A DNA stretch of 64,000 nucleotides from an uncultured Bacteroides sp. (GCA_902491215.1 CABUGV010000002.1:95206-159205), one strand, 5' to 3'; counted from the stretch's first letter, positions 2,441-58,717 are shown. A program made the numbers and translations. Notes: a model not told the origin generated them from the sequence alone.

Positions 2441-2545
2441 CTGCGGGCGCTCAGAAAGATCATTCCGAGGGCTCAAAAAATTAATTACGAGCGCTCGCAG
2501 ATATTTAGAATGTTAAGAGCTGGCAGAAAAGCGACGTACGGAATG
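2441..2545 (+). repeat. Dispersed intergenic GC-palindrome repeat element, copy A
   Basis: Units gcgggcgctcagaaagatcatt / ccgagggctcaaaaaattaat / tacgagcgctcgcagatattt / gagctggcagaaaagcg. It aligns position-by-position with copy B at 15283-15372. Confidence 0.6.
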
Positions 2546-2674
2546 GCGGACGAAAGATACACCACAAAAAAATAAAAAGAAAGCGCGATACAGCACAGCA
2601 GATAAATCATCAAAAGTTATTTATCAACTATGCCGTATCGCGCTTATACTATAGTTCAGGAAAAAGGATGTATT

Positions 2675-4969
2675 CTAAATCTTTACATAATTGAGCCTCA
2701 GCGCATTCAACACGACGCTGACAGAAGAGAGTGCCATACATGCCGAAGCATACATCGGATTCATTGTGACACTTATGCCGAAGAGGTTGAGCACTCCTGC
2801 AGCAAGAGGTATGCAGAGTGCGTTGTAGGCAAACGCCCAGAAAAGTCCCATGCGTACGAAACGGCGGTAGAGAGCCGACAGACGCAAGGCACGTGGAAGA
2901 AGACGAAGGTCGTCGTTCATAATGGTAACGGAAGCGACTTCGTTTGCCACGTCTGTGCCTCGTCCCATGGCGATACCTACATCAGCACGTGCAAGAGCTT
3001 GTGAATCATTTATGCCATCGCCCACCATTGCCACAATCTCTCCATGTTCGCGGCATTCAGCAATATAGGCATCTTTTTCGTCCGGCAACATAGATGCGCG
3101 CCATTCGTCTATACCTACCTTTGAGGCTGTCTCTGAAGCAGGTGCTTCAGCATCGCCTGTGAGCATGACCAACTTCTTTCCCATGGCTTTGAGAGCGGCT
3201 ATTGCCTCGGAAGCTTCAGGACGTACACTGTCACTGACAGCGGCGGCGGCCAGAATTGTTTCGGCTGTACCGAAATAGACTATGCTGGCACCGGCAGGAC
3301 GCGATGCTGTCCATCGGACAAGGGATTCATCGGGTGAAAGTCCGCAGTCGGCCATAAATTTTGCATTACCAGCCCAGAAACGACGTCCTCCACAAACAGC
3401 TTTGATGCCACGTCCGGGGATGTTTTCAAAATCGGTCGCTTCAATGCCTGCAGAACTGCCAAGACGCGATGTAATGGCTTTGGACAACGGATGTCCGGAC
3501 AAAGCCTCTATTGCAGAAAAAGCTTTTATATCGGCTTCCGTTGCAGACGGTGAAGTAAATATGTCTTCGGCTACAGGTGTACCAAGAGTCAGTGTACCCG
3601 TCTTATCGAAAACGAATGTAGTGCAACGGCCGAGCTGTTCGAGAGCTTCAGCATTCTTGACAAGCACATGCATTCGTGCTCCGCGCCCTAGGGCTACAAC
3701 AAGCACTGTTGGTGCCGCTAGTCCAAGAGCACATGGGCAAGAAATGACAAGAACAGATACTGCGGAGAGAAGGCCTCGAGCGAAGGCTGCGGTGCCACCT
3801 GTGTAAAGCCATACAGCAAGGGTGAGTACGGCAAGCAGTATTACTACCGGTACGAAGAAGGAGGACACGCGATCGACCGTACGCTGAACCGGCGACTTGG
3901 AAGCCTGTGCGTCGGCCACCATACGTATGATTTTAGACAAGAGGGTATCGGAACCGACACTGTCGGCCGTCATGCGGAAAGCTCCATCGGTATTGACTGC
4001 TCCGGCAAGCACCTTGTCGCCTACAGTCTTGTCAACTGGAAGCGGTTCACCTGTAAACATACTCTCGTCGACTGCAGATGTTCCAGAAATAATGTGTCCG
4101 TCGACAGGTATCTTTTCGCCTGGACGCACCAAAAGTTCCATGCCGGCAACAACTGCAGAAACCGGCGTAGGCACTTCGCGTCCATCGCTGATTACACATG
4201 CTGTACGCGGACTCAATGCAGACAATGCACGGATGGATGATACGGCACGTCGCTTGGCACGTTCCTCAATGAGCTTGCCGGTGAGGACAAAAGCGATGAC
4301 CATTGAAGATGCTTCGAAATAGACGTAAGAGTCGAGTCCGCGATTCCAGAAAAAGAAGGGGTTATAGAGACTGAAAACGCTGAAAAGAAAAGACACTCCG
4401 GTACTTAGGGCTACGAGGGTGTCCATGTTGCAGCGTCCATGAATGGCCTGAAAGAAAGCACTGCGGTAGAAAGGGAATCCTGAATAGAGAATAACAGGAA
4501 GAGAGGCAACAAGTGCCAGACCGCTGAGCCACCAAGTTTCGCCGGTAACGACATGACACTCCATACCTATGAGCATGACCGGAATGGCAAATATCCATGC
4601 AACTATTGTACGGAAAAGAAGGGAACGGAAACGGCGTTTCTCGGCTAATGCAACTGCATCTGTAGATTCATCGACAGAAGGCGATGGAGAAATGCTTTCT
4701 GAAGGCTCTGGGGCTTCTGCATCAACAGGCGTAGGAGATGGTGTATCGGGAGTATCGACCACAAGTTCGAAAGAGAGACGTGCAAGACTTTCGGCCATAG
4801 CAGAAGGCGTAATCAGCGACGGATCGTAAGTTACGGTTACTGTGTTGGAAAAAAGGTCTACTGATACATCCTCAATTCCTTCGAGCCGCTTCAGCGACTT
4901 TTCTATGTTGGCCGCACAGACAGCACAGTGCATTCCCTGCACGGGCCATGTTTTCTTAAGTGTACTCAT
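2675..4969 (-). CDS. copA: Heavy-metal (Cu+) translocating P1B-type ATPase
   Basis: 764 aa. N-terminal HMA domain with GMHCAVCA, the CPC motif ([10 protein letters not shown]), the DKTGTLT phosphorylation site and the [10 protein letters not shown] hinge. An ATG sits at 4967-4969. Confidence 0.9.
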
Positions 4970-5078
4970 ATCAAGGCTTAAATAAAATCGTTCATCAACT
5001 TTCGTTGCAACTGAAACGTGTTATGCCTCAGTGCAGAAAGTATCGGCAACAAAATTACAAAATAAGGATAAAAGATAG

Positions 5079-5108
5079 TTTGCTTTTGGCTTTTTAGTTA
5101 TAATTTTG
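5079..5108 (+). promoter_or_regulatory. Candidate Bacteroidetes sigma-A promoter (TTTG ... TAnnTTTG) for the lipoprotein gene
   Basis: TTTG at about 5079-5082 and TAatTTTG at about 5101-5108, roughly 27 nt upstream of the ATG at 5135. The spacing is 18 nt against a consensus of 19-21. Confidence 0.3.
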
Positions 5109-5134
5109 CAACCGGATTTCAAAAAGTCGAAAGA

Positions 5135-5959
5135 ATGAAGAACAGTATAATCGCAGCACTGGTTTCGGCATTGTCAGTAATATGCATGTCGGGATGCGGA
5201 GAAAGCGCAGGAATGATGTTTGAGAATGTAGGTGATTCAATTTCATACCGTCTTGACAGCACTGCAGGAAGTGCCTCGCCGACACTGAGCATAAAAATAG
5301 ATATGCAGTTTGCAAAAACAGATACAGAAGATGAATTGGCGAAAAAGGCTGCGGAAACCATAAACACGAATATTGAAAACGAAGTGTTCTCCATGAGCGG
5401 TATGCCGGAAGAGGTTGTCGACTCGTTCATAAAGTCGAGTACAGAACTTTATGCGCAGACAATGTTTCCTCTATATGCCGAAGACAAACAAAAGGGCGCA
5501 ACCATGGCATCGGCTTACGACAACTACCACAACATAAGCGGAAAGGCTGTCGAGGGACACAGCGGAATAATAAACTACATGGTGACTGAAGAGATGTACA
5601 ACGGCGGTGCGCATCCGGTAAGTGTAACCACATATCTGAACTTCAACAGAGAAACAGGAGAGCTGATAGAACTGGATGCTCTCTTCAAGGAGGGATACAA
5701 GGAGAAACTGGACGATATTCTGCTTAAAGCACTTATGAAACAGTGCGGTGCAAAAAACGTAAAGGAGCTCAACGATGCCGGATATCTCTGCTTTACAGAC
5801 ATGTATGCAAGCAGCAATTTCCTTCTGAAAGAGGACGAAATTGAATTCTACTACAACGTGTATGAAATAGCACCGTACGTTATGGGACCTACGGTACTTA
5901 ACATAAAATATGAGGAGATTAAGGATTTAATGATTGACAACTCAAAGGATTTCAAATAA
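5135..5959 (+). CDS. Lipoprotein, DUF3298/DUF4163-like (RsiV-like fold)
   Basis: Lipobox signal (MKNSIIAALVSALSVICMSGCG) and an NGGAHP motif of the kind found in DUF3298 proteins. Confidence 0.5.
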   Translation: MKNSIIAALVSALSVICMSGCGESAGMMFENVGDSISYRLDSTAGSASPTLSIKIDMQFAKTDTEDELAKKAAETINTNIENEVFSMSGMPEEVVDSFIKSSTELYAQTMFPLYAEDKQKGATMASAYDNYHNISGKAVEGHSGIINYMVTEEMYNGGAHPVSVTTYLNFNRETGELIELDALFKEGYKEKLDDILLKALMKQCGAKNVKELNDAGYLCFTDMYASSNFLLKEDEIEFYYNVYEIAPYVMGPTVLNIKYEEIKDLMIDNSKDFK

Positions 5960-6600
5960 TGGACACAGGATTGGACAACATATTCGGATACTTTCCAGAA
6001 CTAAGCGACAGACAGAAGGAACAGATGGCACAGCTATATCCGCTGTATGCCGACTGGAACAGCAAAATCAACGTGATAAGCCGTAAAGATATTGACAACC
6101 TGTATGTTCACCATATACTGCACTCGCTGGGCATAGCAAAGGTCGTAAAATTCAGAGAGGGAACACGCATAATGGACGTGGGCACGGGAGGCGGCCTGCC
6201 GGGAATACCGCTAGCGATAATGTTTCCGGAATGCAAATTTCACCTCGTGGACAGCATAGGCAAGAAAATACGCGTAGCCCAAGAAATTGCAAATGCACTG
6301 GGATTGGAAAACGTTACTCTCAGACACTGCCGCGCTGAGGAAGAGAAAGATGAATTCGACTTTGTGGTGACACGTGGCGTCATGCCTTTGGTTGACCTGG
6401 TTAAAGCCATAAGGAAAAATATCGGAAGAGAGCAGAAGAACTCTATTTCCAACGGTATTCTGGCACTTAAGGGAGGAGAACTGGGAAGCGAGATTGCACC
6501 GATGAAAAATATATGTACGACATGGGATCTGAAAGACTTCTTCAAGGAGGAGTTTTTTGAAACGAAAAAGGTTGTACACGTTGCCATCGGCAAGAAATGA
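5959..6600 (+). CDS. rsmG: 16S rRNA (guanine527-N7)-methyltransferase
   Basis: SAM-binding motif (MDVGTGGGLPGIPLAI) and GidB-like length (213 aa). Its start overlaps the stop of the upstream gene (TAATGG). Confidence 0.85.
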   Translation: MDTGLDNIFGYFPELSDRQKEQMAQLYPLYADWNSKINVISRKDIDNLYVHHILHSLGIAKVVKFREGTRIMDVGTGGGLPGIPLAIMFPECKFHLVDSIGKKIRVAQEIANALGLENVTLRHCRAEEEKDEFDFVVTRGVMPLVDLVKAIRKNIGREQKNSISNGILALKGGELGSEIAPMKNICTTWDLKDFFKEEFFETKKVVHVAIGKK

Positions 6601-6657
6601 CAATAAGAATAGAGAGTTTTTTTAAATAACTTACCAAAATAAAGCAAGAGAAACGAA

Positions 6658-7302
6658 ATGCTCAAGGTAAAGAAATTCACAGTCAATCCTGTGCAGGAGA
6701 ACTGCTATGTGGTCAGCGACGAGACAAAAGAGGCTGTCATCATAGACTGCGGATGTTTTGACGAATTTGAATGGGATGACATTGAAAACTATATTAAGAA
6801 CAATGGTCTTAAACCGATGCATCTGCTGAACACTCACCTGCATTTCGATCACAGTCTTGGAAACCATTTTGCATACAAGGCGTTCGGACTGAAGCCGGAA
6901 GCAAGCATAAAGGACAGCAGTACTTATGAGAACATGAGAAACCAGCTGCGCATGTTTTTAGGCACAGACGAGCTGTACCACGAACAACCGGCTATAGGAA
7001 AAGACCTTAAGCAGAACGATAAAGTGGAATTCGGCAAGACTGTATTCGACGTTATCGAGACTCCTGGACATACACCTGGAGGAATATGTTTCTACTGCAA
7101 GGAAGAAGGAATGCTTTGGGCTGGAGATACGCTCTTCAGAGGAAGCATCGGAAGGACTGACCTTCCTGGAGGAAATTACAGAGAACTTGTATACGGTATT
7201 GCAGAGAAACTGCTCACACTGCCTGAAGAAACACAGGTATATTGCGGGCATGGGCCTTCTACCAGCATAGGATTTGAGAAAGACAACAATCCTTATCTAT
7301 AA
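6658..7302 (+). CDS. MBL-fold metallo-hydrolase (glyoxalase II-like)
   Basis: HLHFDHSLG metal-binding motif; 214 aa. Confidence 0.8.
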   Translation: MLKVKKFTVNPVQENCYVVSDETKEAVIIDCGCFDEFEWDDIENYIKNNGLKPMHLLNTHLHFDHSLGNHFAYKAFGLKPEASIKDSSTYENMRNQLRMFLGTDELYHEQPAIGKDLKQNDKVEFGKTVFDVIETPGHTPGGICFYCKEEGMLWAGDTLFRGSIGRTDLPGGNYRELVYGIAEKLLTLPEETQVYCGHGPSTSIGFEKDNNPYL

Positions 7303-7334
7303 TATAAAAAACTCTAAAAGGGGCAAACTTCAAA

Positions 7335-7844
7335 ATGAAAAGTACGGTCGATAAAGTTGCAGAATGTGTGATGGAATATTTCATGAAAGAAGATCCGACA
7401 CAGATTCCGCATACACAATGCGTAGCAAGCTATACACACTACATTGCCGTTTGTGAAAATCTGCCTGAACATGAGACCGGTCTGATTGAGATGGCAGCAT
7501 GGATGCATGATATCGGATGTCCCGAGTCTAAAAAGAAATATGGCAACACACTACCGGTACATCAGGAGGAAGAGGGAAGAATTGTGGCCGGTGAGCTGCT
7601 CAAAAATATTGACGGACTTACTGAAAACGAAAAAGCATGGATAGCCGATGTTGTCGGCAATCATCACAAGCGTGCTGAAGTAGACAGACTGAAATTTGCT
7701 CCACTGTTCGATGCCGATTGCATAGTAAACATGACAGAAGGATATTATCCGAAAGAAAATGCCGGAACATTCCTTGAAAAAGCTATGTCGACAAAGTGCG
7801 GTAAGGAAATCTTCAGAAAACTGTTTCTTGAAGCCAAACAATAA
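7335..7844 (+). CDS. HD-domain phosphohydrolase
   Basis: H...HDIG signature (WMHDIGCPE) and a downstream D. Confidence 0.7.
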   Translation: MKSTVDKVAECVMEYFMKEDPTQIPHTQCVASYTHYIAVCENLPEHETGLIEMAAWMHDIGCPESKKKYGNTLPVHQEEEGRIVAGELLKNIDGLTENEKAWIADVVGNHHKRAEVDRLKFAPLFDADCIVNMTEGYYPKENAGTFLEKAMSTKCGKEIFRKLFLEAKQ

Positions 7845-7892
7845 AAGTCTATACAGAGAATTTGAAAAACATAACAACCAACGTCAGCACCT

Positions 7893-10169: not shown

Positions 10170-10207
10170 CGGTGTGAGAAAATATATGTCGAAAATGCAC
10201 AGTTTTT

Positions 10208-13679: not shown

Positions 13680-15218
13680 ATGCAGAAGACCATATCCATA
13701 AAGGAGGGAGTGGCACGCCATCCGCTTTACCGCTTCAAGAATCCCATAAATCTCGACATAATGGCGGGAGAACATATCGCCATAACCGGCGACAACGGTT
13801 CGGGAAAATCGATGCTCGTAGACATTCTCACAGAGAAGCATCCGCTGCTCATCACACATGTAGAATACGACTTTGCACCGAGCAAGGCCAAGATGGTCAG
13901 CGACAACATAAAATACATCACATTCCGCGACTCATACGGCACAAGCGACGGTCAGTATTACTATCAGCAGCGATGGAACCAGCACGATGTTGACGACACA
14001 CCGCTCGTCGGCGAACTTCTCGACGAGGCATACGCTTCTGCCGAAAACAACATCAACAGCCAGAAAGACATAAGCGACGAAGACAAGAAGCAGATATCGC
14101 TAGAAAGAATCTCTCTACGCCACCACCTGTACAAGATTTTCCATCTCGAACAACTGCTCGACAAGAGAATAATCATGCTCAGCAGCGGTGAGCTCAGAAA
14201 ATTTCAGCTCACAAAAACCCTGCTCAGTAATCCGCGCATACTGATAATGGACAATCCGTTCATCGGACTTGACACTACTGCACGCGAGCAGCTGCGCGAA
14301 CTGCTGGAGGTTCTCACTAGAGAAACCGAACTGCAGATAATACTGGTTCTTTCTAAGACGGACGACATTCCGGACTTCATCACACACGTCATCAATGTGG
14401 AGAACATGGATATGCATCCGAAGACCACTCTCCGCGAATATCTCGACAATCTCAAGGCCATACCGCCACATGTGCTGACAGAAGAAAAAGCTCAGAAAAT
14501 CGTAGACCTGCCGTACAATGATCCTGACGACCTTACAGCCGAACCCGGAACACGCCACGTCATCGACTTCAAGAACGTGTGCATACGCTACGGTGAGCGC
14601 ACCATACTGAAGGACCTCAACCTGACAGTGATGAACGGCGAGCGCTGGGCACTGAGCGGCGAGAACGGTGCCGGAAAATCTACCCTTCTCAGCCTCGTAT
14701 GTGCCGACAACCCGCAGTCGTATGCCAACGACATCGTGCTCTTCGGCAGACAGCGCGGAAGCGGCGAAAGCATCTGGGACATCAAGAAGCACATAGGCTA
14801 CATAAGTCCGGAGATGCACCGCGCATACATGAAGGACATACCGGCAATAGAAATAGTGGCCTCGGGCCTCAGCGACTCCGTCGGTCTCTACCGCAAACCG
14901 AAGCCGGAACAGATGGGCACATGCGAATTCTGGATGGACATGTTCGGCATCCTCAAACACAGAGACACAACATTCCTCAAGCTGTCGAGCGGCGAACAGC
15001 GCCTGGTGCTCCTAGCCAGAGCTTTCGTAAAAGACCCGTCGCTCCTCATACTCGACGAACCTCTACACGGGCTCGACATGATGAACAGACGTCTGGTGAA
15101 GGACATAATAGAAACTTTCTGCAGACGACACAACCGCACACTCATCATGGTCACCCACTATCAGGAGGAACTGCCCGACTGCATAGACCACAAGATATAT
15201 CTGAAAAAGAATGCCTGA
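13680..15218 (+). CDS. ABC transporter ATP-binding protein with tandem NBDs (ModF-like)
   Basis: Two Walker A motifs (GDNGSGKS, GENGAGKST) and two LSSGE signatures; no TM domain. Confidence 0.85.
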   Translation: MQKTISIKEGVARHPLYRFKNPINLDIMAGEHIAITGDNGSGKSMLVDILTEKHPLLITHVEYDFAPSKAKMVSDNIKYITFRDSYGTSDGQYYYQQRWNQHDVDDTPLVGELLDEAYASAENNINSQKDISDEDKKQISLERISLRHHLYKIFHLEQLLDKRIIMLSSGELRKFQLTKTLLSNPRILIMDNPFIGLDTTAREQLRELLEVLTRETELQIILVLSKTDDIPDFITHVINVENMDMHPKTTLREYLDNLKAIPPHVLTEEKAQKIVDLPYNDPDDLTAEPGTRHVIDFKNVCIRYGERTILKDLNLTVMNGERWALSGENGAGKSTLLSLVCADNPQSYANDIVLFGRQRGSGESIWDIKKHIGYISPEMHRAYMKDIPAIEIVASGLSDSVGLYRKPKPEQMGTCEFWMDMFGILKHRDTTFLKLSSGEQRLVLLARAFVKDPSLLILDEPLHGLDMMNRRLVKDIIETFCRRHNRTLIMVTHYQEELPDCIDHKIYLKKNA

Positions 15219-15282: not shown

Positions 15283-15372
15283 TGCAAGCGCCCGCAGATG
15301 AAATTCCGAGCGCTCGAAAAATAAATCGCAGGCGCTCGCAGAACGGACGTTGAGCCTGTCCGATAAGCAGAA
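15283..15372 (+). repeat. Dispersed intergenic GC-palindrome repeat element, copy B
   Basis: gcaagcgcccgcagatgaaatt / ccgagcgctcgaaaaataaat / cgcaggcgctcgcagaacgg / gagcctgtccgataagcag. Collinear with copy A. Confidence 0.6.
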
Positions 15373-15425: not shown

Positions 15426-17264
15426 ATGAGAAAAGAAATCATTACATCCATGGCCCTGCTGGCAGCTCTGACGTCGGCTTCGGCCAAAAACAAGGTGATT
15501 GAAGATCCGAGTCTGAAATTCTCATCTACTCCGGTGCTCGGCATAGACGAGATAATATTGGGCGACACGGCTACAACCGTAAAGTTCAGCATTGAAGATA
15601 CACCTGGAAAAACATTCACCATCGCTTCTAGAGCGGCACTCTATGCCGGCGGACAGAAGTACGCCTACACTTCATGTTCGGGCATCACACCTGACATGGC
15701 AACAGCTGTACCAGCTGAAGGCGAACTCCACTTCACAATGAATTTCAAGCCTGTACCATCTGGCACAAAAACGGTTGATTTCAAAGAATCTGAATCGGAC
15801 AAAGGATGGAGCATCTGGGGCATTCATCTCGACGGCAAGAAGGAAAAGGTGGATGTACCTGCCGAACTGCGCAAGCAGAAGCTCGACCGCGAACAGCCGC
15901 TTCCTGCCATCGTCCCTTCATACGGTTATGCAGAAATAAGCGGACGCCTGCTCGGCTACTCTACCGACATGAATTTCAGCGTCAGCCTTACATCAACCGA
16001 CATGCTTACGCTCAACGACGAGACTGTCGACTGCACACTCTCGCCTGATGGAAGCTTCACCGGCAAAGTGATGCTCTGCGCTACAGCACCTATATATTTG
16101 AACGTAGGCGAACACAGAATTGAACTTCTTGCTTCGCCTGGCAAATCAGCTTCAGTAACAGTGAGCCTGCCAGGAATCTCTGAAGACAACGACAGGGATG
16201 ACGCGAAGAGCATTTGGTTTGAAGGCGAACTCAGCGCATTCAACGACGAGTACAACTCGCTCGACGATGATGTCACCGAAAAAGCCCTCTACAAGTGGGA
16301 TTTTCCAGAGTTCAAGTCCTCCGGAATTGTTCCTTTCAAGGAAAAACAGCTGAAGACTCTCAACTTGATAAAGGCCAACATCGACAGCGACAAGAATCTG
16401 AGCAGTGTCATGAAGAACTATCTTAAAGCGAGAACAGAACTTGCAGCAAGCATCAACATCATCACAGCACCGCTCCTCTACCGCAACATGACTCAGGGCA
16501 AGGAAGCAGAAGTGCCGGCCGACTACTACGACGAGGTAATATCGATGAACGCATTCAACAACAAGTTCAATGCATACACAAGCATGGCACCACGCCTTGC
16601 ACAGCTCACAGTTGCTATCGCTAGAAACAACGAAAAACTCTACAACCTCTTCAAGGACAACAGCGAACTCATTCCGCAGCTCACTTACGCACAGACCGTT
16701 GCCAAACAGTTTGCAGACTTTACACCTGTCAGTGACGAAATAAAAGAAGCAATCAAGGGCAATTCTCCGGCATTTGCAGACAAACTCTTCGAAATGAACG
16801 ATGAAGTTGTTGCCCGCATCGAAGCCAACAAGAGCAAGACCGGATATACGGTTCATGATCTTGACGAGAATCTAAAGGGTGCCGACGTATTCAACAATAT
16901 CATATCGCAGTTCAAGGGCAAACCAATCCTCGTTGACTTCTGGGCAACATGGTGCGGACCTTGCCGCATGGGCATGAAGACCATCGAACCGCTCAAACAG
17001 GAAATGGCCGGCAAAGTGACATTCGTTTACGTATCAGGTGTGACATCGCCTAAGAATCTTTGGCAGAACATGATACCGGACATCCACGGCGAACACTTCT
17101 ATGTAACCGCAGAGCAGTGGCAGACACTCCTCTCGCAGTTCGAAAGTCAGGGCATACCGACATACGTGGTTGTCGACAAGGACGGAAATGTTCAGAGCAA
17201 ATTCATTGGTTTCCCTGGAAATGACAAACTCAAGGAAGAATTCGAAAAAGCTCTGGCAAAATAA
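15426..17264 (+). CDS. TlpA-family thiol:disulfide oxidoreductase with a long N-terminal extracytoplasmic domain
   Basis: Signal peptide and a C-terminal thioredoxin fold with WCGPC ([10 protein letters not shown]); 612 aa. Confidence 0.8.
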
Positions 17265-29533: not shown

Positions 29534-30250
29534 TCATTTCATAAGTCCACCGGTACCGAAGTCGAAAGCCTTATGCTGGCTGTTGTCTTCAATACTTCCG
29601 ATGACTCCATCCTTTATGTGAATAATCTTATCAGTCTGGTTGGCCACACCGCTCTCGTGAGTTACGACAACTATTGTCATACCTTCATCGTGGAGCTCCT
29701 TTAGAATCTGCATGACCTCTACCGACGTAGTGCTGTCGAGAGCTCCAGTAGGTTCATCGGCAAGAATGATCTGCGGTTTCGTCACCAGCGCACGTGCAAT
29801 AGCCACCCTTTGCTTCTGTCCGCCTGAGAGTTCGTTCGGCAGATGTGTCGCCCATGCAGAAAGGCCCACCTTCTCCAGATACTCCATGGCCAAGGCATTA
29901 CGCTTCTTGCGCCCCATTCCTTTATAATAGAGAGGCAAGGCAACATTCTCCACAGCATTCTTATAGGATATAAGATTGAACGACTGGAATATGAAACCTA
30001 TCATACGATTGCGGTACTCGGCCGCACGGCTTTCGCTCAGATGCTTTATAGGAACCCCGTTGAGTTCATACACACCGCTGTCGTAATCGTCGAGTATACC
30101 TAGAATGTTGAGAAGAGTAGACTTTCCCGAACCGGAAGCACCCATTATTGAAACAAACTCTCCCTTGGCGATGTCCAGATCGATTCCTTTCAGAACATGC
30201 AGGGGCACAATGCCGGGATATGTTTTGTTCAGATTCTCAAGATGGATCAT
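29534..30250 (-). CDS. ABC transporter ATP-binding protein (MacB/LolD-type)
   Basis: Walker A ([12 protein letters not shown]), signature ([15 protein letters not shown]) and Walker B ([11 protein letters not shown]). Confidence 0.9.
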
Positions 30251-30457
30251 TGTCTGTAATTTATATGGTATTACCTAATATGTGCTTTTGCTGAAATGCA
30301 TTTACTTGGCCACAAAGTTATACTTTACAGCTTTTAGTACACACAAAAAGTAAACAAAAATGAAGATATAATGGAATAAAGCAATAAAAAACATTCTATT
30401 ACAAAGACTTTGCCACACAACACACAGCATCAACGGCAAACAGACAGGACCTTGCAT

Positions 30458-30585
30458 CGAACGGCGCGAGCCCTCGCGGCTGCAACTGCACGCCCTCGGA
30501 AAATTCATTGCAAGCGCCTGGAGTTCTGCAGTTTGTATAGACAGCTGAAAAGCAACTTGCGAATTAGGCGCCGAGACGGTTTTAT
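30458..30585 (-). repeat. Dispersed intergenic GC-palindrome repeat element, copy C (inverted orientation)
   Basis: The reverse complement contains …caggcgcttgcaatgaatttt / ccgagggcgtgcagttgcag / ccgcgagggctcgcgcc. It is a more degenerate copy of the A/B unit order. Confidence 0.45.
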
Positions 30586-30623
30586 TTTTATAGGTAAATT
30601 TTTCTGTTTCAACAATAATTATG

Positions 30624-30631
30624 TAAATTTG
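30624..30631 (+). promoter_or_regulatory. Candidate -7 TAnnTTTG promoter element for the mmd operon
   Basis: TAaaTTTG, about 60 nt upstream of the ATG at 30691. Confidence 0.3.
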
Positions 30632-30690
30632 CTTCGTTTGATAGACTGACCTAGTTAAATTATTAATACTACACATAATTAAAAGAAAAT

Positions 30691-31098
30691 ATGAAAATCT
30701 CACGTATTGACCACCTGGGCATCGCTGTCCAGAGCATAGAAGAGGTATTACCTTATTTTGAAGGAGTATTGGGTTTGAAATGCTATGCAATAGAAGAAGT
30801 AGAAGACCAGAAAGTAAAAACTGCTTTCCTCAAGGTAGGCGAAGTAAAGCTTGAACTTCTCGAGCCGACAAGCCCTGAAAGTGCAGTAGCAAAATTCCTG
30901 GAAAAGGGGGGCAAAGGCATACATCATGTGGCATTCGCTGTTGAAGACGGCGTTGCAAACGCACTCGCAGAATGCGACAGCAAAGGCATCAGACTTATCG
31001 ACAAGGCTCCAAGACCAGGCGCTGAGCAGATGAGCATTGCTTTCCTGCACCCTAAATCAACAGCAAGCATACTCACAGAACTTTGCGAAAAAGCTTAA
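30691..31098 (+). CDS. Methylmalonyl-CoA epimerase (VOC/glyoxalase family)
   Basis: HLGIAV and HHVAF metal-ligand motifs; 135 aa. It is the first gene of the mmd operon. Confidence 0.85.
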   Translation: MKISRIDHLGIAVQSIEEVLPYFEGVLGLKCYAIEEVEDQKVKTAFLKVGEVKLELLEPTSPESAVAKFLEKGGKGIHHVAFAVEDGVANALAECDSKGIRLIDKAPRPGAEQMSIAFLHPKSTASILTELCEKA

Positions 31099-35613: not shown

Positions 35614-35686
35614 AGCCGAATGCGGGACTCGAACCCGCGACCTATTCATTACGAATGAATTGCTCTACCAGCTGAGCCAATTCGGC
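35614..35686 (-). tRNA. tRNA-Thr (anticodon CGU)
   Basis: Cloverleaf read as: GCCGAAT acceptor stem, GCTC-AGCTGGTA-GAGC D-arm, ATTCA-TTCGTAA-TGAAT anticodon arm (CGT), GCGGG-TTCGAGT-CCCGC T-arm. 73 nt, no encoded CCA. Confidence 0.85.
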
Positions 35687-53604: not shown

Positions 53605-53691
53605 AACAAACCTTAACTTCAAATTTATCTGCAAATCACGCAATCGGTATCACCTGCGCCACAAACAGACAGATGACGCAGATTGTGCAGT

Positions 53692-53955
53692 TCACGTCGT
53701 ACCTCGGCTTTCCTTGAACCGTTCAAGTATTTCAAGCCCTTTTGCAATGTCGGCCTCGAAAACCATAACCTTGATCAGCGAAGCCGACACAATTATAGGA
53801 GCATAACAGCTGCATGCTGTATTTGTAAGAAAGCAGGCTACGCCCTCATCCTTAAGAATCGTTTCGAGCAATTGGCATTCCCAAAGTTCTCCACGATACA
53901 ATTCTACAATTCGTCCCTTATCCATAAAATCATCATGGTTGAATGATGCATTCAT
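53692..53955 (-). CDS. Small DUF2007-like protein (putative signal-transducing protein)
   Basis: About 70-87 aa; the core (…IVELYRGELWECQLLETILKDEGVACF…) is DUF2007-like. It lies 5 bp downstream of the beta-helix gene. Confidence 0.45.
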   Translation of the reverse strand: MNASFNHDDFMDKGRIVELYRGELWECQLLETILKDEGVACFLTNTACSCYAPIIVSASLIKVMVFEADIAKGLEILERFKESRGTT

Positions 53956-53959
53956 TCCG

Positions 53960-55909
53960 TCACGACCTTCTGCATGGAATATCCCATACTTCCGTCAATC
54001 CGTCTTTTTCCAATCTGATTCTTACACGTGTCTCCACAAGCTCTTCTTCCATTCCTTTCGTGTCCATCTTCAGATGCAGACGCTTCAATTTCCCGTCAAG
54101 GTCGACTGTACATACAGTCTTTCCGTCACCGTTGACGAAAGACATTGTTCCTGCAATGGAATCAGGCAGAGCCTCACGCAGATCCATCACCACACCTGCA
54201 CCGTCATCGGCCCAAACAGCCTCATCAGGAAATACAAGTCTGGCCCAAATCAGTTCTGAAATAACACGTGCCTTGCTTTTCACGTCAGTACCGTCTGCAC
54301 CAGAAGCAAATGTATTTGTTCCGCCCATCTCAAAGGCACCAATGTCAATAGATCCATCATTCACTACATTTCCATAAAAATCCCTTCCACCATTGTCGTG
54401 TATGAATTTTCCGGCATTGATACATGGAGATTCCTTCTGCAATTTATATCCGGACAAAGTTTTAAGTCCACGTCCACCTGTACCTGGAGCAACAAACATA
54501 GGATCTGCACAAATAGCTTCAGGATCGTCAGGAATTCCATTTTTCCACGGTCCGAAATAGCAGTTGCGCTGGAACAGTGTACCTGACGGCAAGTTCGGTT
54601 TTATGTTCTCCTCATATATTCTGCTTTCCGTCAAACCGTGCGAGTAGACTGTACGGAAACGTCCCTGTCCTGTGGCATAAAATATATTATTATAGAAAAC
54701 AGCACCAAGATCCTCAGGACGCTTCTCATTATCATTTCCACAGAAGAAATCTATATCTCCTGTGTTTCTGTCGAGATAGAAAACGTTGTTGTAGAAAACG
54801 TTGCCTTCAGACAATGGCCCCTGAATCTGCACAAGATGCGTCTTGTCGTTCTCGCTTATGTTGTATCGGGTTATGTTTCCTGAAATGTTGTACATCAACA
54901 GCATCAATCCGTGATTGTTACGGCTGTAGTTGTACTGTGCCACACATCTGTTGCAGTTGAAATCAAAATCGTAGGCAAATCCGTCGCCGTTGAATTTCTC
55001 TCGTCCCGTATCATACACCTCGTTGAACTGCATGATGGTTTCTTCGGCATCCTGAATCCACACCGCAGCCGTATGAGGCCACCATCCTTTGCTCCCTGGC
55101 AAATCCGGATGTCCGGAACGCATACACGACTCGTGCACCTCGTTGAACTCAATGAGACCACGGTATGTGCCGTTCACAAAAATACCGTCACCGCCGGTAT
55201 TTTCAATATAGTTTCTGCGGACAACGACATTATCTCTTGCGCCCCAGCTGATTATTCCGCATTTGTCGAAACGCTCAATGCGGTTGTTCTCTATCAGCAC
55301 ATCATTGATGGTACTCTTTCGGCCTCCTTCAGTTTCATTTCCACTGCGGACAAAATGCACCAATATTGCACAACTGAAATATCCGCTGTACTCCGTGTCA
55401 CCACCCATCTGTCCCCAGATGTCATGTATATAACAGTTCCTTACAACGATATGCCTCATGTCCACGCCTTGCGCACTGGCTTTGGCCACAATGCCCTGGC
55501 GCCCCACTCCAAGCTTAGGCGGTGCACCGCTGGTAACCTCCATTCCGTCGATTTCCCACCACGAGACATCGCGCAGCATTATTCCTGCTCCTTCAGCATC
55601 GCCGATATTTATTACAGGCCGTCCATCCGATGTCTTTCCGTAAGAAGAAAGCACAATCGGCCGCCCCTCGCTTCCAGAGCCCTTAAGCTTCAGCTGGCCT
55701 TTCCATACACAGCCTTTTTCAAAAAGAATGCTGTCGCCGGGCATGAAAACATGTCCGTTTACTTTCTCCAGCGTTCGCCAAGCTTCAGTCTGCGAAAGTC
55801 CGCTTGCACTGTCATCGCCCGTTTGCGAGACAAAGTAGGTTTTATTCTGCGCCATACCGCCAATAGAGAAGATGGCAGAAAAGACGAACGTCAAAACTTT
55901 TATTTTCAT
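53960..55909 (-). CDS. Right-handed parallel beta-helix protein (pectate-lyase fold; polysaccharide lyase/hydrolase-like)
   Basis: Signal peptide and repeated NxxIxNN / NNxIxxN beta-helix rungs (VVRRNYIENTG, FYNNVFY, FYNNIFY). 649 aa. Confidence 0.65.
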   Translation of the reverse strand: MKIKVLTFVFSAIFSIGGMAQNKTYFVSQTGDDSASGLSQTEAWRTLEKVNGHVFMPGDSILFEKGCVWKGQLKLKGSGSEGRPIVLSSYGKTSDGRPVINIGDAEGAGIMLRDVSWWEIDGMEVTSGAPPKLGVGRQGIVAKASAQGVDMRHIVVRNCYIHDIWGQMGGDTEYSGYFSCAILVHFVRSGNETEGGRKSTINDVLIENNRIERFDKCGIISWGARDNVVVRRNYIENTGGDGIFVNGTYRGLIEFNEVHESCMRSGHPDLPGSKGWWPHTAAVWIQDAEETIMQFNEVYDTGREKFNGDGFAYDFDFNCNRCVAQYNYSRNNHGLMLLMYNISGNITRYNISENDKTHLVQIQGPLSEGNVFYNNVFYLDRNTGDIDFFCGNDNEKRPEDLGAVFYNNIFYATGQGRFRTVYSHGLTESRIYEENIKPNLPSGTLFQRNCYFGPWKNGIPDDPEAICADPMFVAPGTGGRGLKTLSGYKLQKESPCINAGKFIHDNGGRDFYGNVVNDGSIDIGAFEMGGTNTFASGADGTDVKSKARVISELIWARLVFPDEAVWADDGAGVVMDLREALPDSIAGTMSFVNGDGKTVCTVDLDGKLKRLHLKMDTKGMEEELVETRVRIRLEKDGLTEVWDIPCRRS

Positions 55910-55946
55910 ATCAAGAAGGTTTAGCTGTCTGAAATCAATATTGTAT

Positions 55947-56945
55947 TCAAGGACGATATTCCTTGCCTACTTCAAGCTTGTCTCCCGAAAGGTCAACTTC
56001 AAACAAATGCGGTATACGCAAATAGTGTCCGTTAATATTCTTGTGGCTGTGCACCGACATAAGCCATTTTCCGTCGAGCGTGCGGAACAACATGCCGTGT
56101 CCGAAATTAGGCGGAGTTATAGGATTCTTCTCATGCACCCACGGACCGTCCAGCGTGCCGCTTTCCGAATAGGCCACACCCTGTGTATAAACATCGCCAA
56201 TCCAGCTTGTCCATATCATGCCCAGACGTCCTGTGCCGGTACGGAAAAGGTATGGTCCGTCAGTCACCATGTTCGGCTTCACACTTCCATCTCGCGTACT
56301 CTCCCTGCTCCACGGACAAGAGCTGGCCCTGAACATCAGCTTGCCTTCGCCCACCGAACCGCTCAAATCCGGCTTAAGTTCAATTTTCTCAATCGTACCA
56401 TCGAAATTCTGCAGCCATTCGTAGCAATATACCATGTATGGTTTCCCGTCAGAATCGACCCAGAATGTGCCGTCAAGCGTAGGTTTGTCGGCCGGAAGAT
56501 AAGTTGCATCGCCCTTCATCATGTAAGGTCCGCCTGGGGCATCGCTGACCAGCACATGACTGGCACGTCGCGGTATGTCGTTTCCACGATAGCGGTCTAT
56601 GATGACATCACTGTTTGTAAACGTTGCAAAATAATAGTACTTGCCCTTGTACTCATGAAGCTCTGCGGCCCATATCATGGGATGCGCTCCCGTCCAGGAA
56701 GTAGAATCGACCTTCACAACATCATAAGGCCCCGACCACAAGCGCAGATCCTTGCTTTTCCACATTTTCCCGCCGGTACCGGTCATGTAATACATCGACG
56801 TCGACTTGTCGGCCAATATTGCAGGATCGCTCAATCTTATCGAATCCAAAGGTACATTCTCACGTATTTTTCCTAAAGTCCTCTGTGCATTGGCTGACAT
56901 AACGAACATAAACGCCGTTGCGGCCAAAACGAGATTTCTATTCAT
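55947..56945 (-). CDS. Glycoside hydrolase family 43
   Basis: Signal peptide and a 5-bladed beta-propeller pattern with conserved acidic residues (YMTGTGG…, WGPW…DG); 332 aa. Confidence 0.7.
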   Translation of the reverse strand: MNRNLVLAATAFMFVMSANAQRTLGKIRENVPLDSIRLSDPAILADKSTSMYYMTGTGGKMWKSKDLRLWSGPYDVVKVDSTSWTGAHPMIWAAELHEYKGKYYYFATFTNSDVIIDRYRGNDIPRRASHVLVSDAPGGPYMMKGDATYLPADKPTLDGTFWVDSDGKPYMVYCYEWLQNFDGTIEKIELKPDLSGSVGEGKLMFRASSCPWSRESTRDGSVKPNMVTDGPYLFRTGTGRLGMIWTSWIGDVYTQGVAYSESGTLDGPWVHEKNPITPPNFGHGMLFRTLDGKWLMSVHSHKNINGHYLRIPHLFEVDLSGDKLEVGKEYRP

Positions 56946-57126
56946 GGTATTCTGAATTTTTGGTTAAACAAAAAAATTATTATGCAAGTATAGGAAAAAA
57001 TATCGGACTTCGCAGAATGCACTGCATGCAAAAGCCTGTCAAAGAGCAAATATGCAGCAATCAAACAAAAAAAGTCGGCAGAATGACAACTCCACCGGCT
57101 ATTTCTATAGTTTGAATATTCCTTTT

Positions 57127-58320
57127 TCAAGATTTTCTGAATGCCAGATAATCCATGGTGCGCGTGCGTCCCAATGCAATCAGCATACATGTAAGCGAAC
57201 AGAACGAACATATAACAAATATGACACCCGTAGAAGACATTATATCACCTATTCCTACGAGCGGCGAAACTATTCCGCCGGCCGCAAAGCAGACTGCTCC
57301 GAGAAGCGCCGATGCCGTACCCGAATTGTCGCGCTGAGACTCCATGGCCAGTGCTGTGGTAGAAGTGAATGTCATTCCCATTGAGAAAAGAAGGAAAATC
57401 ATGAGCAGTTCGTACACCACAAACGAACAGCCGGACGACATGGCAAAACACTGAACAATTGAAACCACAGCCATTCCGCAGCATCCGGTCAAGGTGCAGC
57501 TTTCTGAATGACGGAACTTGACGGACAAGGCCGCAGCAACACCTATGACAACCGCATTCAGACCGAAACAAAGGCTGAACGAGAAGGCTGAAAAACCATA
57601 ATGCTCCTGCATGATGAAAGGCGATGAAGCTATGTTTGCAAACAATACACCTTGCGCAAAAGCCATCTGAAGCACGTAGCAAACGTATTGACGGTCATGC
57701 ATCACCACACCGAAACTGCGAAGCGTGTCGGCCCATTTTACAGCCGAACGTGACTCGCGCGGCAATGATTCGCGGAATCTTATGCATCCCAGCAACAAGA
57801 ATATGCCCAGAACAAGCAAGATGCAGAATATGCCCTTCCAGCCAATCACATCAGTAAGAAGTCCTCCGACAATCGGAGCCGCTACCGGAGCCACACCATT
57901 TATTGCACCTATCACGGCCAACATCTTTGCAAGCTCGCGACCTGAATATTTATCAGTTGCAACCGAACGAGATATGACAATGCCTCCTGCACCGGCTATG
58001 CCCTGAATCAGACGGAAGGCAACAAACTGCTGGATGTTCTGAGAAAACAGACACATTACCGTAGATGCCAGAAACATCCACATGGCAACAAGCAACGGCG
58101 TGCGGCGTCCGTAGCGGTCGCTCAAAGGACCGAAAAACACCTGACCAACAGCCAGTCCTATCATACTCGTGGTCAAACCTAGCTGTACCATCGAAGACGA
58201 CGTATTGAAGTACTCGCCCATCGAAGGCAGACTCGGCAGATACATATCAGTTACAAACGGGCCGAAAGCGGTAAGCATGCCCAACAAAATAAGCAGAAAT
58301 ACCCTTGAATTTTCTTTCAT
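57127..58320 (-). CDS. MFS transporter, Bcr/CflA-type drug exporter
   Basis: 12 TM helices and an N-terminal motif (GPFVTDMYLPSLPSM) typical of the Bcr/CflA subfamily. Confidence 0.8.
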   Translation of the reverse strand: MKENSRVFLLILLGMLTAFGPFVTDMYLPSLPSMGEYFNTSSSMVQLGLTTSMIGLAVGQVFFGPLSDRYGRRTPLLVAMWMFLASTVMCLFSQNIQQFVAFRLIQGIAGAGGIVISRSVATDKYSGRELAKMLAVIGAINGVAPVAAPIVGGLLTDVIGWKGIFCILLVLGIFLLLGCIRFRESLPRESRSAVKWADTLRSFGVVMHDRQYVCYVLQMAFAQGVLFANIASSPFIMQEHYGFSAFSFSLCFGLNAVVIGVAAALSVKFRHSESCTLTGCCGMAVVSIVQCFAMSSGCSFVVYELLMIFLLFSMGMTFTSTTALAMESQRDNSGTASALLGAVCFAAGGIVSPLVGIGDIMSSTGVIFVICSFCSLTCMLIALGRTRTMDYLAFRKS

Positions 58321-58612
58321 TCAAAATCCTCCTAAATCTAAAAACCTTTTACCTTTTTTCTTTGTAGTCCATAAAGTTTATCGCCTAATGCGTCTGCATG
58401 CGTTCCGTACCATGATAAACCACGGCGTACGACACAAGACACATACTATCCTGTAATACAGACGTTTACACTTCACGGATCAAATTTTATGCAAATGTAC
58501 TGATGAATTTTTTCAGATGCAAATCAACAGAGCCGTATATGCAGCATTTATTGACAATCTTTCACTGTAATAAATTAAAAATCCACAAAAAATGACTGAA
58601 ACAGCGCATGAA

Positions 58613-58717
58613 CCTTGAGCGCCTGCATACAGAATTACGAGCGCTCGCAATTACAAACGCGGGCGCTCAAAATTTTTGCCACGAGCGCCTGTGCCGTGAA
58701 AAACAAGAGCCGGCAGG
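58613..58717 (+). repeat. Dispersed intergenic GC-palindrome repeat element, copy E
   Basis: gagcgcctgcatacagaat / tacgagcgctcgcaattacaaa / cgcgggcgctcaaaatttttgcc / acgagcgcctgtgccgtgaaaaacaa / gagccggcagg. Confidence 0.6.

Follow-up and report, generated by a model that had tools for sequence, protein, structure and literature searches.

Phased 22-bp palindrome arrays in the intergenic DNA of an uncultured Bacteroides: a hitherto undescribed repeat family

Five short arrays of palindromes, repeated with an exact period of 22 bp, were found in the window, a stretch of 64 kb from 'Bacteroides sp. 43_108', which is an uncultured species of the human gut represented by a MAG. Together with related arrays in other genomes they form a repeat family that is hitherto undescribed. 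We tentatively read this family as REP-like rows of sites that are held in phase and bound by a dimeric protein, probably kept by selection and possibly with an architectural rather than a gene-specific role.

Anatomy and genomic setting of the arrays

The unit of the arrays is a 16-bp palindrome with the consensus TTsCGAGCGCTCGsAA, where the layout observed in a logo of 130 units (34 non-redundant arrays) is TT-s-CGAGCGCTCG-s-AA. The palindrome has no loop and, in the window species, no conserved GTAG/CGTC flank. Each period of 22 bp consists of 16 conserved and 6 variable bases, and the centres of the spacers are A- or T-tracts which are never self-complementary. The core-to-core distance is 22 bp in every window array. 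In all the Bacteroidales sequence examined, 217 of the 224 consecutive core-to-core distances of up to 70 bp were 22 bp and none was 21 or 23 bp, and this phase is constant across genomes whose spacers are unrelated. The number of units is also narrow, with three units in 10 arrays, four in 17, five in 5 and six in 1. A preliminary description of this DNA had located all five copies correctly, with three or four cores in each, but its unit (a 10-bp core), spacing (21-23 bp) and element length (80-110 bp) give way to a wider palindrome, a period of exactly 22 bp and core extents of 54-76 bp. Its base-for-base alignment of arrays A and B was found to be gapless, with 47 of 70 positions identical (67%) compared with about 18 of 70 in random pairs, and the two copies are therefore alike but not identical. 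Array C, the most diverged of the five copies, had been described as inverted; its forward and reverse alignments score about equally and, because the units are palindromic, no such orientation can be called.

The three-unit pattern YRNGSSCYYR-N12 (x3) gave 10 strand-matches, all of them at the five loci, and none in 100 dinucleotide shuffles, while matches to the two-unit pattern in the window were also confined to these loci. With a scoring matrix trained on metagenome loci only, the arrays reached 41-63 bits, compared with 11.5 bits for the best site in the shuffles. The next best site in the window scored -1.8 bits, so that the count of arrays in the window is exactly five, with no decayed copies hidden in the background. 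The bare 8-mer GAGCGCTC, with one mismatch allowed, was not found above its chance frequency in the whole window. Chance, low complexity or an assembly, vector or adapter artefact can be dismissed for practical purposes: the GC-rich palindromic core is all that speaks for it, whereas the phased patterns are absent from shuffles and more than 20 independent assemblies have the same arrays with the same gene neighbourhood, which refutes it. A match to a tRNA, rRNA or vector had been named at the outset as grounds for discarding the repeat, but no tRNA, rRNA, Rfam, plasmid or phage match to the arrays was found, and its standing as a genuine dispersed repeat is upheld. A CRISPR array was also rejected, as this would have repeats of 24-48 bp with unique spacers of similar length, and the observed arrays have a total period of 22 bp and 3-6 units.

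Table 1. Arrays of the window, with the units in order, matrix scores and neighbouring genes
Feature	Position	Core starts	Units	Score (bits)	Neighbours (strand)
Array A	2444-2497	2444/2466/2488	CGGGCGCTCA, CGAGGGCTCA, CGAGCGCTCG	63.2	Peptidase_M6 gene, 2001 aa, start 2216 (-); copper P-type ATPase gene 2675-4969 (-), its terminator on the array-facing side
Terminator hairpin, separate from array A	about 2570-2650 (-)
Array B	15285-15338	15285/15307/15329	CAAGCGCCCG, CGAGCGCTCG, CAGGCGCTCG	60.7	ABC-F ATPase gene 13680-15218 (+); thioredoxin-like gene 15426-17264 (+)
Array C	30467-30520	30467/30489/30511	CGAGCCCTCG, CACGCCCTCG, CAAGCGCCTG	41.3	Divergent: ABC ATPase 29534-30250 (-); first gene of mmd operon, methylmalonyl-CoA epimerase-like, 30691-31098 (+)
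Array D	43600-43653	43600/43622/43644	CGAGCGCTCG, TGCGCGCTCA, CGAGCGCCTG	55.7	Convergent: alcohol dehydrogenase gene 42499-43521 (+); AraC-family gene 43673-44548 (-)
Array E	58616-58691	58616/58638/58660/58682	TGAGCGCCTG, CGAGCGCTCG, CGGGCGCTCA, CGAGCGCCTG (four units)	50.4	Divergent: MFS transporter 57127-58320 (-); nitroreductase 58826-59467 (+)

All 75 non-redundant arrays are intergenic and none lies inside a credible gene, which bears out the strictly intergenic location first proposed. Their gene contexts are mixed (23 co-directional, 13 divergent and 12 convergent), and hence there is no link between the arrays and the direction of transcription. Gene mapping in the window also agreed with the contexts described before, as two arrays (A and B) lie between same-strand genes, two (C and E) between divergent genes and one (D) between convergent genes. 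Array D starts 4 bp past the T-run of the alcohol dehydrogenase terminator and ends 19 bp short of the stop of the AraC-family gene, and a TAAATTTG box is found about 75 bp downstream of array E. The window arrays are unusually evenly spaced, at 11-15 kb from one another. An intrinsic terminator was rejected because the terminator scanner flags no array, the true terminators that adjoin A (z -8.8) and D (z -6.7) are separate from the arrays, and C and E are located between divergent gene starts; the earlier remark that termination alone is an inadequate explanation was a sound one.

Distribution and conservation across lineages

The check put forward earlier, a search for copies in the genome and in related genomes, came out positive. 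More arrays lie on other contigs of 'Bacteroides sp. 43_108', with seven now known for the species, and uncultured Bacteroidales from rumen, horse and human have the same architecture in at least six further MAGs. The REP-like density noted earlier, five copies per 64 kb, holds for the region of the window and cannot be carried over to the whole genome. The distribution of the family is patchy, being limited to a few uncultured lineages, and the arrays of each MAG have a spacer and flank flavour of their own. As an example, RUG733 carries about 20 near-identical copies of about 100 bp with a fixed order of four unit types and a fixed flank, which consists of an alternating purine-pyrimidine tract and AAAGGTC. 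Some of these arrays are just 2.4-4 kb apart, and their units contain CGTC, but this is paired with GACG inside the palindrome. Inverted TGAACCGCTCCTTTGA-like sequences, together with an AACTAGTT motif, flank the copies of RUG849 and UBA4361 on both sides. Such inverted flanks are limited to these two genomes; among the five window copies and about 30 other human-gut copies neither a common flank nor an inverted one was observed.

Arrays B, D and E occupy orthologous positions in sister lineages where the flanking proteins are 84-94% identical. The orthologue of B in lineage L134 has four units compared with three in the window, D is kept in L132, and E is kept in L128 but has decayed in L129, a more distant relative, which indicates that the arrays are dispensable in some lineages. 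Array C was found in 10 of the 10 strains examined and array E in all strains examined. In the orthologues of B, D and E, changes were observed at 14 of 100 core positions and at 34 of 84 spacer positions (Fisher p = 8e-5), and 13 of the 14 core changes are transitions. No phase-breaking indel was found in these arrays, where the sole change in length is one whole unit of 22 bp, and the adjacent intergenic DNA has many indels or is unalignable. The core divergence of array E (12.5%) is no lower than the 12% of substitutions in the surrounding alignable intergenic DNA, and the case for selection would therefore draw on three other features, namely the contrast between cores and spacers, core changes that are nearly all transitions, and a phase that is left intact. 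A part of this pattern could also be produced by gene conversion among the copies.

Protein binding and its alternatives

The two halves of the palindrome were observed to vary independently. Among the 130 units of the 34 non-redundant arrays, each symmetric position has the number of Watson-Crick pairs that independence predicts. For example, at symmetric positions 3/8 there are 80 A-T, 25 A-C and 19 G-T combinations, and the compensated G-C combination occurs twice where about four are expected. Such independent variation fits two protein half-sites and not a selected stem. The arrays thus combine the features of cooperative operator-type sites, which are independent half-sites, a constant helical phase and stronger conservation of the sites than of their linkers.

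We infer from these features that the arrays act in cis, as double-stranded DNA, and that one symmetric dimer of a sequence-specific DNA-binding protein would occupy each 16-bp palindrome. The constant period of 22 bp, about two helical turns, would place 3-6 dimers on one face of the helix, and the A/T-tract linkers that join them would permit cooperative assembly into a short nucleoprotein complex. These complexes would be found at gene and operon boundaries of every orientation, beside terminators and not in place of them, which would point to an architectural role, such as that of domain, insulator or topology sites, and not to the control of one gene set. This function is read from position alone. 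The family would be REP/BIME-like and lineage-specific, with some copy mechanism amplifying it in certain genomes, and the arrays of 'Bacteroides sp. 43_108' would be old, fixed in position and maintained by selection. No candidate for the binding protein was found, and the only gene families that recur beside the arrays are common ABC ATPases and OmpR-type regulators.

The main rival to this protein-binding reading, which we regard as somewhat unlikely, is a selfish non-autonomous mobile element (MITE- or REP-like) that spreads by copy-and-paste and has no host function. The phased palindromes would then be bound by a transposase or recombinase whose gene is located elsewhere in the genome, and each array would represent a miniature or solo transposon end. 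The near-identical copies of RUG733, with their fixed flank and unit order, show recent amplification, and the bracketed copies of RUG849 and UBA4361, the genome-specific spacers and flanks, the patchy occurrence and the intergenic location of every copy are also consistent with mobility. The even spacing in the window would agree with it as well, since target immunity of the Tn7/Mu type could explain why copies stay at least 10 kb apart; however, the short distances in RUG733 indicate that immunity is not a property of the whole family. A mobile element fits RUG733 better than 'Bacteroides sp. 43_108', where the arrays have neither shared flanks nor terminal inverted repeats, all three arrays tested are at orthologous positions in lineages whose proteins are 84-94% identical, and C and E are kept in all strains examined. 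No empty site was found among four loci examined in strains and sister lineages, L129 having a decayed array and not an empty site. Furthermore, no transposase gene recurs near the arrays, the plasmid and phage collections hold no match, and the HUH...YxxNP (RAYT-type) signature was absent from six-frame translations of the 1.06 Mb of sequence examined, in a weak test with a crude regex. The end sites of DDE transposases are oriented, unlike these palindromic sites, which have no polarity. The preliminary description had called the element mobile or templated; mobility is unsupported for this species, and copy-and-paste amplification is seen in some other MAGs, above all RUG733, but is not evident in 'Bacteroides sp. 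43_108'.

Arrays of operators for one specific transcription factor, acting as a cooperative repressor or activator upstream of the genes that it controls, appear improbable, even though six of the seven arrays known for the species have at least one gene that starts 87-300 bp downstream, and the half-sites vary independently. A 16-bp palindromic unit with two-turn phasing is typical of cooperative operators such as ARG boxes and met boxes. Nevertheless, no common theme connects the neighbours, which include a copper ATPase, a metalloprotease, an ABC-F protein, a thioredoxin-like protein, a MacB-type exporter, the mmd operon, an alcohol dehydrogenase, an AraC protein, MFS/GH43 genes and a nitroreductase. 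A quarter of the classifiable arrays, including D, are flanked by convergent genes, a position that lacks a promoter, and the TAnnTTTG -7 boxes, about 75 bp downstream of E and about 105 bp downstream of C, are not overlapped. Arrays of sites for a palindrome-binding protein, an alternative offered earlier, are favoured by the evidence, but the neighbouring genes do not resemble one regulon. The other alternative offered, a structured RNA, is disfavoured by the lack of covariation and by the occurrence of the arrays in all transcriptional contexts. Hairpins stacked in a transcript that, as has been reported for REP and BOX elements, serve the stability, termination or processing of mRNAs, or that act as a small RNA, are in our view highly improbable. 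Arrays A, B, D and E do fold somewhat better than shuffles (z -1.5 to -4.5), with unit 1 pairing with unit 3, units E1 and E3 complement each other better than themselves, and array D is inside the likely 3' UTR of the AraC gene. In contrast, compensated pairs are not in excess within units, across spacers or in units of the same array relative to units of different arrays, and array C has a z of about 0. At array B the strand that folds best runs antisense to the two genes beside it, A and D come just after the canonical terminators described above, and C and E are upstream of promoters. None of the Rfam hits at E <= 5 overlaps an array, and a single tRNA (35614-35686) was all that passed the gathering threshold in the window.

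A bolder possibility, to which we attach little weight, is that the arrays are the anchors of a new chromosome-organising system in a Bacteroidales subclade. If so, each row of 3-6 phased palindromes would be the assembly point of a lineage-specific protein, the regular distances of about 11-15 kb and the positions themselves would be retained through speciation, and the arrays would mark the boundaries of supercoiling or contact domains. Their role would be comparable in kind to that of matS, parS and Noc-binding sites, from which the arrays would differ in being multi-site and evenly spaced.

Comparison with known systems

The mechanistic model adopted for the arrays is that of cooperatively bound tandem sites, such as ARG boxes (18-bp palindromes with a 21-bp period), met boxes, the 22-bp iterons of R6K and sopC of F. 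These systems occur at one or a few loci and have a defined function; they are not dispersed over unrelated intergenic positions. The BOX elements of Streptococcus pneumoniae are dispersed in a similar manner, being modular, intergenic and near genes in any orientation, with a variable number of tandem boxB modules, but the modules are 45-59 bp long, are not palindromic decamers, have no helical phasing and are thought to act as RNA structures. The ends of Tn7 and Mu have three or four transposase sites of 22 bp, and their immunity could give over-dispersed copies. However, those sites are asymmetric and oriented, and two ends bracket kilobases of cargo, whereas the arrays are palindromic and stand alone, with no TnsB- or MuA-like gene seen nearby.

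Within the Bacteroidales, the BrickBuilt MITE of Porphyromonas gingivalis is also always intergenic, with about 19 copies per genome, and consists of units of 22-23 nt that follow one another in tandem with no non-repeat spacer between them (PMC4596501); its leader and tail modules resemble the flanks in RUG733 and RUG849. BrickBuilt has a large and variable number of units (up to 18) and IS5-like terminal inverted repeats (PMC4596501). Its 23-nt unit AGAYCATARTATCCTCTCRTRTG is not palindromic, and neither this unit nor the terminal repeats resemble the array units in sequence. The arrays of the window, in contrast, are limited to 3-4 units, lack terminal repeats and are fixed in position across lineages.

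REPs are defined as imperfect palindromes with a stem of 5-13 bp, a loop of at least 2 nt and an unpaired GTAG/CGTC tag at one end (PMC3733652). The window arrays differ in that their 16-bp palindromes have neither loop nor tag. The usual arrangement of REPs, which are associated with RAYT transposases, is an inverted dimer, head-to-head or tail-to-tail, with a variable distance between the units, whereas the arrays have a head-to-tail register of invariant 22 bp and gave no RAYT signature in the 1.06 Mb searched by crude regex. Inverted doublets of the REPIN type were rejected on account of this tandem register and because complementarity between units is no higher within an array than between arrays. 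Like REPs, the arrays are extragenic and multi-copy, are found on several contigs and have orthologous copies in sister lineages. The likeness to the REP/BIME elements of Enterobacteria and Pseudomonas (GTAG/CGTC superfamilies) extends to short GC-rich palindromic units with a strictly extragenic location, to small composite arrays of lineage-specific sequence in tens to hundreds of copies, and to long vertical persistence, REP/BIME elements being thought to bind host proteins and to affect topology or mRNA (PMC3733652; PMC3116915).

Array design and unit anatomy

All five arrays were found to share one design, in which GC-rich decamers near CGAGCGCTCG are separated by A/T-rich stretches. This design was read at each of the five places named in the preliminary description. 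The spacing, described there as 21-23 bp, is exactly 22 bp when calculated from the decamer starts (Table), and Tandem Repeats Finder reports period 22 for arrays B and D. A degenerate three-unit pattern gave 10 strand-matches, located only at the five arrays, with none in 100 shuffles, and a two-unit pattern has no match in the window besides them. With a position matrix trained solely on loci of other contigs, the five arrays reach 41-63 bits, the next best window site -1.8 and shuffled sequence at most 11.5. The window therefore contains five arrays and no additional decayed copies. Only the phased pattern is informative, as the bare core GAGCGCTC with one mismatch was observed 18 times against 19.5 expected.

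Arrays A and B had been described as aligning base-for-base. We observed a gapless alignment with 47/70 matching positions, compared with about 18/70 for random pairs, so that the likeness holds and the full identity does not. The description of array C as inverted has no basis, because the unit is a palindrome and forward and reverse alignments score about alike for most array pairs. A GAGCY-containing motif (variants AAGAGCTGGCAG, TTGAGCCTGTCC, AGACAGCTG and AAGAGCCGGCAG) lies out of phase, 23-29 bp past the start of the last unit, in arrays A, B, C and E. It also follows the array B orthologue in a sister lineage (L134) and might represent either a degenerate unit or a tail module. A sigma-54 promoter in the array tails (TGGCAG...) was rejected on spacing and on the absence of the -12 GC.

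A logo of the unit, computed over 34 non-redundant human-gut arrays with 130 units in total, shows a 16-bp palindrome, T-T-s-C-G-A-G-C-G-C-T-C-G-s-A-A, and then about six variable A/T-rich bases. Two positions of the central GCGC, G4 and C7, never vary. Four units are present in 17 of these arrays and three in 10, with five units in 5 arrays and six and two units in one array each. Among distances of up to 70 bp between consecutive cores in all Bacteroidales sequence examined, 217 of 224 were 22 bp and two were 44 bp, while distances of 21 or 23 bp did not occur.

At every symmetric position of the 130 units, the Watson-Crick count equals the expectation under independence. For example, positions 3/8 are A-T in 80 units, A-C in 25 and G-T in 19, and the compensated G-C pair occurs twice against about four expected. 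The spacer centres are A-tracts or T-tracts with self-complementarity below chance, and units of the same array showed no extra mutual complementarity relative to units of different arrays. Tests for hairpin or cruciform selection were negative within units, across spacers and between units, which gives no support for a selected RNA or single-stranded DNA fold. Independent halves are the pattern that two separately read half-sites on duplex DNA would be expected to give. In the metagenome-assembled genome (MAG) RUG733, a T-A/C-G association at positions 1/10 (p = 0.003) was observed because position-specific unit types are inherited from a master copy.

A restriction-modification role for the unit was rejected, as AGCGCT is not avoided (8 observed against 11 expected, 4 of them inside arrays). 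Across the whole window, CATATG (2 observed against 14.4 expected) and GGATCC (1 against 5.4) are strongly under-represented, and their scarcity suggests that the source species may carry restriction-modification systems of these specificities. ACTAGT was observed 0 times against 0.9 expected in the 64 kb.

Gene context, placement and spacing

The window proteins are proteins OKZ23837-OKZ23882 of the MAG 'Bacteroides sp. 43_108' (GCA_001915545.1), and on a 178-kb scaffold the window matches positions 94,851-158,850. This species is common in human gut assemblies, yet it is rather isolated, as the best named homologues of two proteins are only 55-57% identical.

Positions of the arrays and associated features (window coordinates unless a locus, L, from another assembly is given)
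Feature	Position (decamer starts for A-E)	Setting	Left gene	Right gene	GAGCY-containing motif
Array A	2444 / 2466 / 2488	same strand (-)	2001-aa Peptidase_M6 gene	copper ATPase	2517-2526
Array B	15285 / 15307 / 15329	same strand (+)	ABC-F ATPase	thioredoxin-like gene	15352-15356
Array C	30467 / 30489 / 30511	divergent	ABC exporter operon	methylmalonyl-CoA decarboxylase operon	30540-30547
Array D	43600 / 43622 / 43644	convergent	alcohol dehydrogenase	AraC-family gene	
Array E	58616 / 58638 / 58660 / 58682	divergent	MFS/GH43 operon	nitroreductase	58707-58716
Next array right of E	L121:17606-17681 (window-equivalent ~69,500)				
Four-unit array	L124:15986-16061	upstream of glycosyltransferase genes			
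tRNA gene cluster, - strand	L121:15480-16640	~3.5-4.7 kb right of window end			
73-aa ORF	L121:6715-6936 (window ~58608-58829)	across array E			
124-aa ORF, - strand	30302-30676	across array C			
Extra GH84 (NAGidase) gene	L122:7139-9902; L125; L128:12874-15090	not in window; between esterase and thioredoxin-like gene (61322-61893)			
Alternating tract	L027-L069, e.g. L040:3550-3568	start of RUG733 elements			
GGTGTACACC x3	L019, L026, L060, L065, e.g. L065:5717-5790	after array, Ca. Colivivens caballi			
AACTAGTT	L022, L051, L058, L066	abuts array, SGB_1791			
AACTAGTT	L021, L024, L030, L052, L057, L062	abuts array, RUG849			
AACTAGTT	L043	abuts array, UBA4361			

Gene mapping bears out the contexts previously assigned to the five copies, and the functions of the neighbouring genes are unrelated. 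Strong canonical terminators directly adjoin arrays A and D (hairpins with z of -8.8 and -6.7, both with a U-run behind them), and the folding of the arrays themselves is only modestly better than that of shuffles. The arrays are therefore not terminators. Short ORFs are placed over arrays E and C in public gene calls and ORF lists; they lack any Pfam match and are probably artefacts of the GC-rich repeat. The extra GH84 gene, found in some strains and in a sister lineage, is a strain-variable insertion.

In a census of 75 non-redundant arrays, none was located inside a credible gene. Co-directional genes flank 23 of them, divergent genes 13 and convergent genes 12; a further 13 are overlapped by nothing more than doubtful short ORFs spanning the array, and 14 are at locus edges. 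The only gene families recurring beside arrays are ABC ATPases, OmpR-type regulators and an outer-membrane barrel family.

The gaps between arrays A-E are 12.8, 15.2, 13.1 and 15.0 kb. With five sites assigned randomly to the window's 23 intergenic gaps, such regularity (a minimum gap so large, or a coefficient of variation so low) was reached in about 7-8 of 10,000 trials. We regard the even spacing as real, though noticed post hoc. The next array to the right was predicted at 13-15 kb and lies 10.9 kb from E, which agrees roughly and not exactly. No array was found in the 7.3 kb left of the window, which are filled by two very long genes. Furthermore, no second array was found within the flanks of the metagenome loci, the longest of which is 12.7 kb, and such lone arrays fit an exclusion zone of about 10 kb without establishing one. 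Wide spacing does not hold throughout the family, as the arrays of RUG733 are 2.4-4 kb apart.

To the right of the window, a dense tRNA gene cluster with an internal duplication was noticed. Two otherwise identical assemblies, L121 and L124, diverge inside this cluster through either a strain rearrangement or a mis-join, and the continuation in L124 carries another four-unit array.

Related arrays and conservation at orthologous sites

A scan of 185,579 species genomes, with one perfect unit and two degenerate units in phase as the query, returned 53 loci. About 44 of them belong to a handful of uncultured Bacteroidales MAGs (RUG733, RUG483, RUG849, UBA4361, RUG14395, Candidatus Colivivens caballi and a Bacteroidaceae MAG labelled SGB_1791, JAZNGW01). 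The remaining loci are either tandem repeats without relation to the family or chance matches in genomes of high GC content. No match came from the source species in this species-representative scan, though three strain-conserved arrays of the window fit the pattern. It is probably missing from the collection or masked in it, and the taxonomic range seen is therefore a lower bound. A metagenome scan gave 41 loci, mainly from human gut, where five overlap arrays D or E. At least seven further loci carry proteins of the same species, so that the genome-wide check for more copies located arrays on other contigs of the 43_108 genome. The 16 matches in viral contigs have two units each and are due to chance; almost all come from contigs of high GC content.

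Every genome has 3-6 units with the core YGAGSSCTCR and a 22-bp period, whereas spacers and flanks are genome-specific. The RUG733 element, of about 100 bp, consists of an alternating purine-pyrimidine tract, AAAGGTC and then four units in fixed order. In RUG849 and UBA4361 the array is bracketed by AACTAGTT and inverted TGAACCGCTCCTTTGA-like sequences, and AACTAGTT directly abuts one array end in SGB_1791 as well. A comparison of UBA4361 with RUG849 for an empty site was uninformative because synteny stops at the element. The Ca. Colivivens caballi arrays, which are followed by three GGTGTACACC palindromes about 23 bp apart, are composite elements of two kinds of phased palindrome. The RUG733 tract is 12-16 bp long (ACGCGCGCGT, ACGTGCGCACGT, ACGCGTGTGCGCGT and others), and the alternation is kept while the sequence varies. 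Such tracts are prone to form Z-DNA, and the tract hints at a module that may be sensitive to supercoiling.

Three arrays could be compared with orthologues in sister lineages. Array E and L128 (nitroreductase 94% identical in amino acids) both have four units over 76 bp without an indel, with changes at 5/40 core and 9/36 spacer positions. Array D and L132 (AraC 92%) have three units each, in phase, with 5/30 core and 15/24 spacer changes. Array B has three units and L134 has four, a difference of one 22-bp unit (thioredoxin-like protein 84% in amino acids, ABC-F gene 87% in nucleotides), with 4/30 core and 10/24 spacer changes. Over the three arrays together, 14/100 core positions had changed, 13 by transition, against 34/84 spacer positions (Fisher p = 8e-5). 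The rest of the intergenic DNA at E has 54 substitutions and 18 indel columns in 442 relative to L128, and the upstream intergenic DNA at B cannot be aligned with L134. Of array E, only a decayed remnant that has lost its phase is left in the more distant L129 (81% in amino acids), and in genomes more distant still synteny is gone and the array was not seen. The lineage of L130 is another in which arrays are lost. Arrays C and E are kept in all assemblies of the species examined with point differences only, and the orthologous loci L080 and L094 differ by two units (44 bp). The orthology, the contrast between cores and spacers and the kept phase indicate that the 43_108 arrays are old and positionally stable. 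Their linkers turn over quickly while core sequence class and phase stay constrained.

Interpretation and comparison with known systems

We tentatively favour a REP-like family in which the phased units are predicted sites for a symmetric dimer, retained by selection at gene boundaries in an architectural and not a gene-specific role. A dimer of a DNA-binding protein would occupy each unit; binding, cooperativity and role are inferences. A selfish miniature mobile element, with the palindromes as transposase sites, is well supported in RUG733 and RUG849. In 43_108, where terminal repeats, a transposase signature and insertion polymorphism were not found at the loci examined, it is poorly supported, and as a reading of the window arrays it seems rather unlikely.

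Operator arrays of a regulon are improbable, since the neighbouring genes are unrelated and some arrays lie between convergent genes. We consider an RNA element more doubtful still, since covariation was not seen, there are no Rfam matches and the position of the arrays relative to terminators and promoters is unfavourable. An artefact is excluded by the presence of arrays in more than 20 independent assemblies.

The family is unusually tractable, in that the unit is short and recognisable, the phase never varies and copies can be traced between orthologous loci. Such traits suggest a specific protein partner, which a 90-bp probe might retrieve. Should this partner be a nucleoid or topology protein, the arrays would offer a first handle on chromosome-domain marking in Bacteroidales. 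Should it be a transposase, they would represent a novel type of miniature element with ends made of palindromic site arrays. Under either reading the arrays are usable as strain and lineage markers, and they probably cause spurious short gene calls such as the one annotated over array E.

The small extragenic repeats of Proteobacteria and pneumococci have received much study. To our knowledge such repeats have barely been studied in Bacteroidales, the dominant gut order. The Bacteroidales examples that we found in the literature are MITE-like elements of P. gingivalis such as BrickBuilt, whose unit sequence is unrelated to the arrays, and homology was ruled out on sequence. No description of the family was found in the searchable literature, where the core sequence returned primers and unrelated matches only and reports of REP/RAYT or MITEs for Bacteroides or Prevotella gave nothing matching. 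None of the CRISPR, terminator or Rfam families fits the arrays.

REP/REPIN elements have a tagged stem-loop and inverted doublets, neither of which occurs here, and their hallmark RAYT was not found in what is a weak test. MITEs have terminal inverted repeats, which the 43_108 arrays lack. By class, the arrays are dispersed extragenic palindromic repeats. By analogy, they appear most like REP/BIME in working and most like cooperative operator arrays in mechanism. The notable features of the family are its loop-less palindromes, invariant two-turn phasing and positional conservation, with regular spacing possibly a further distinctive trait.
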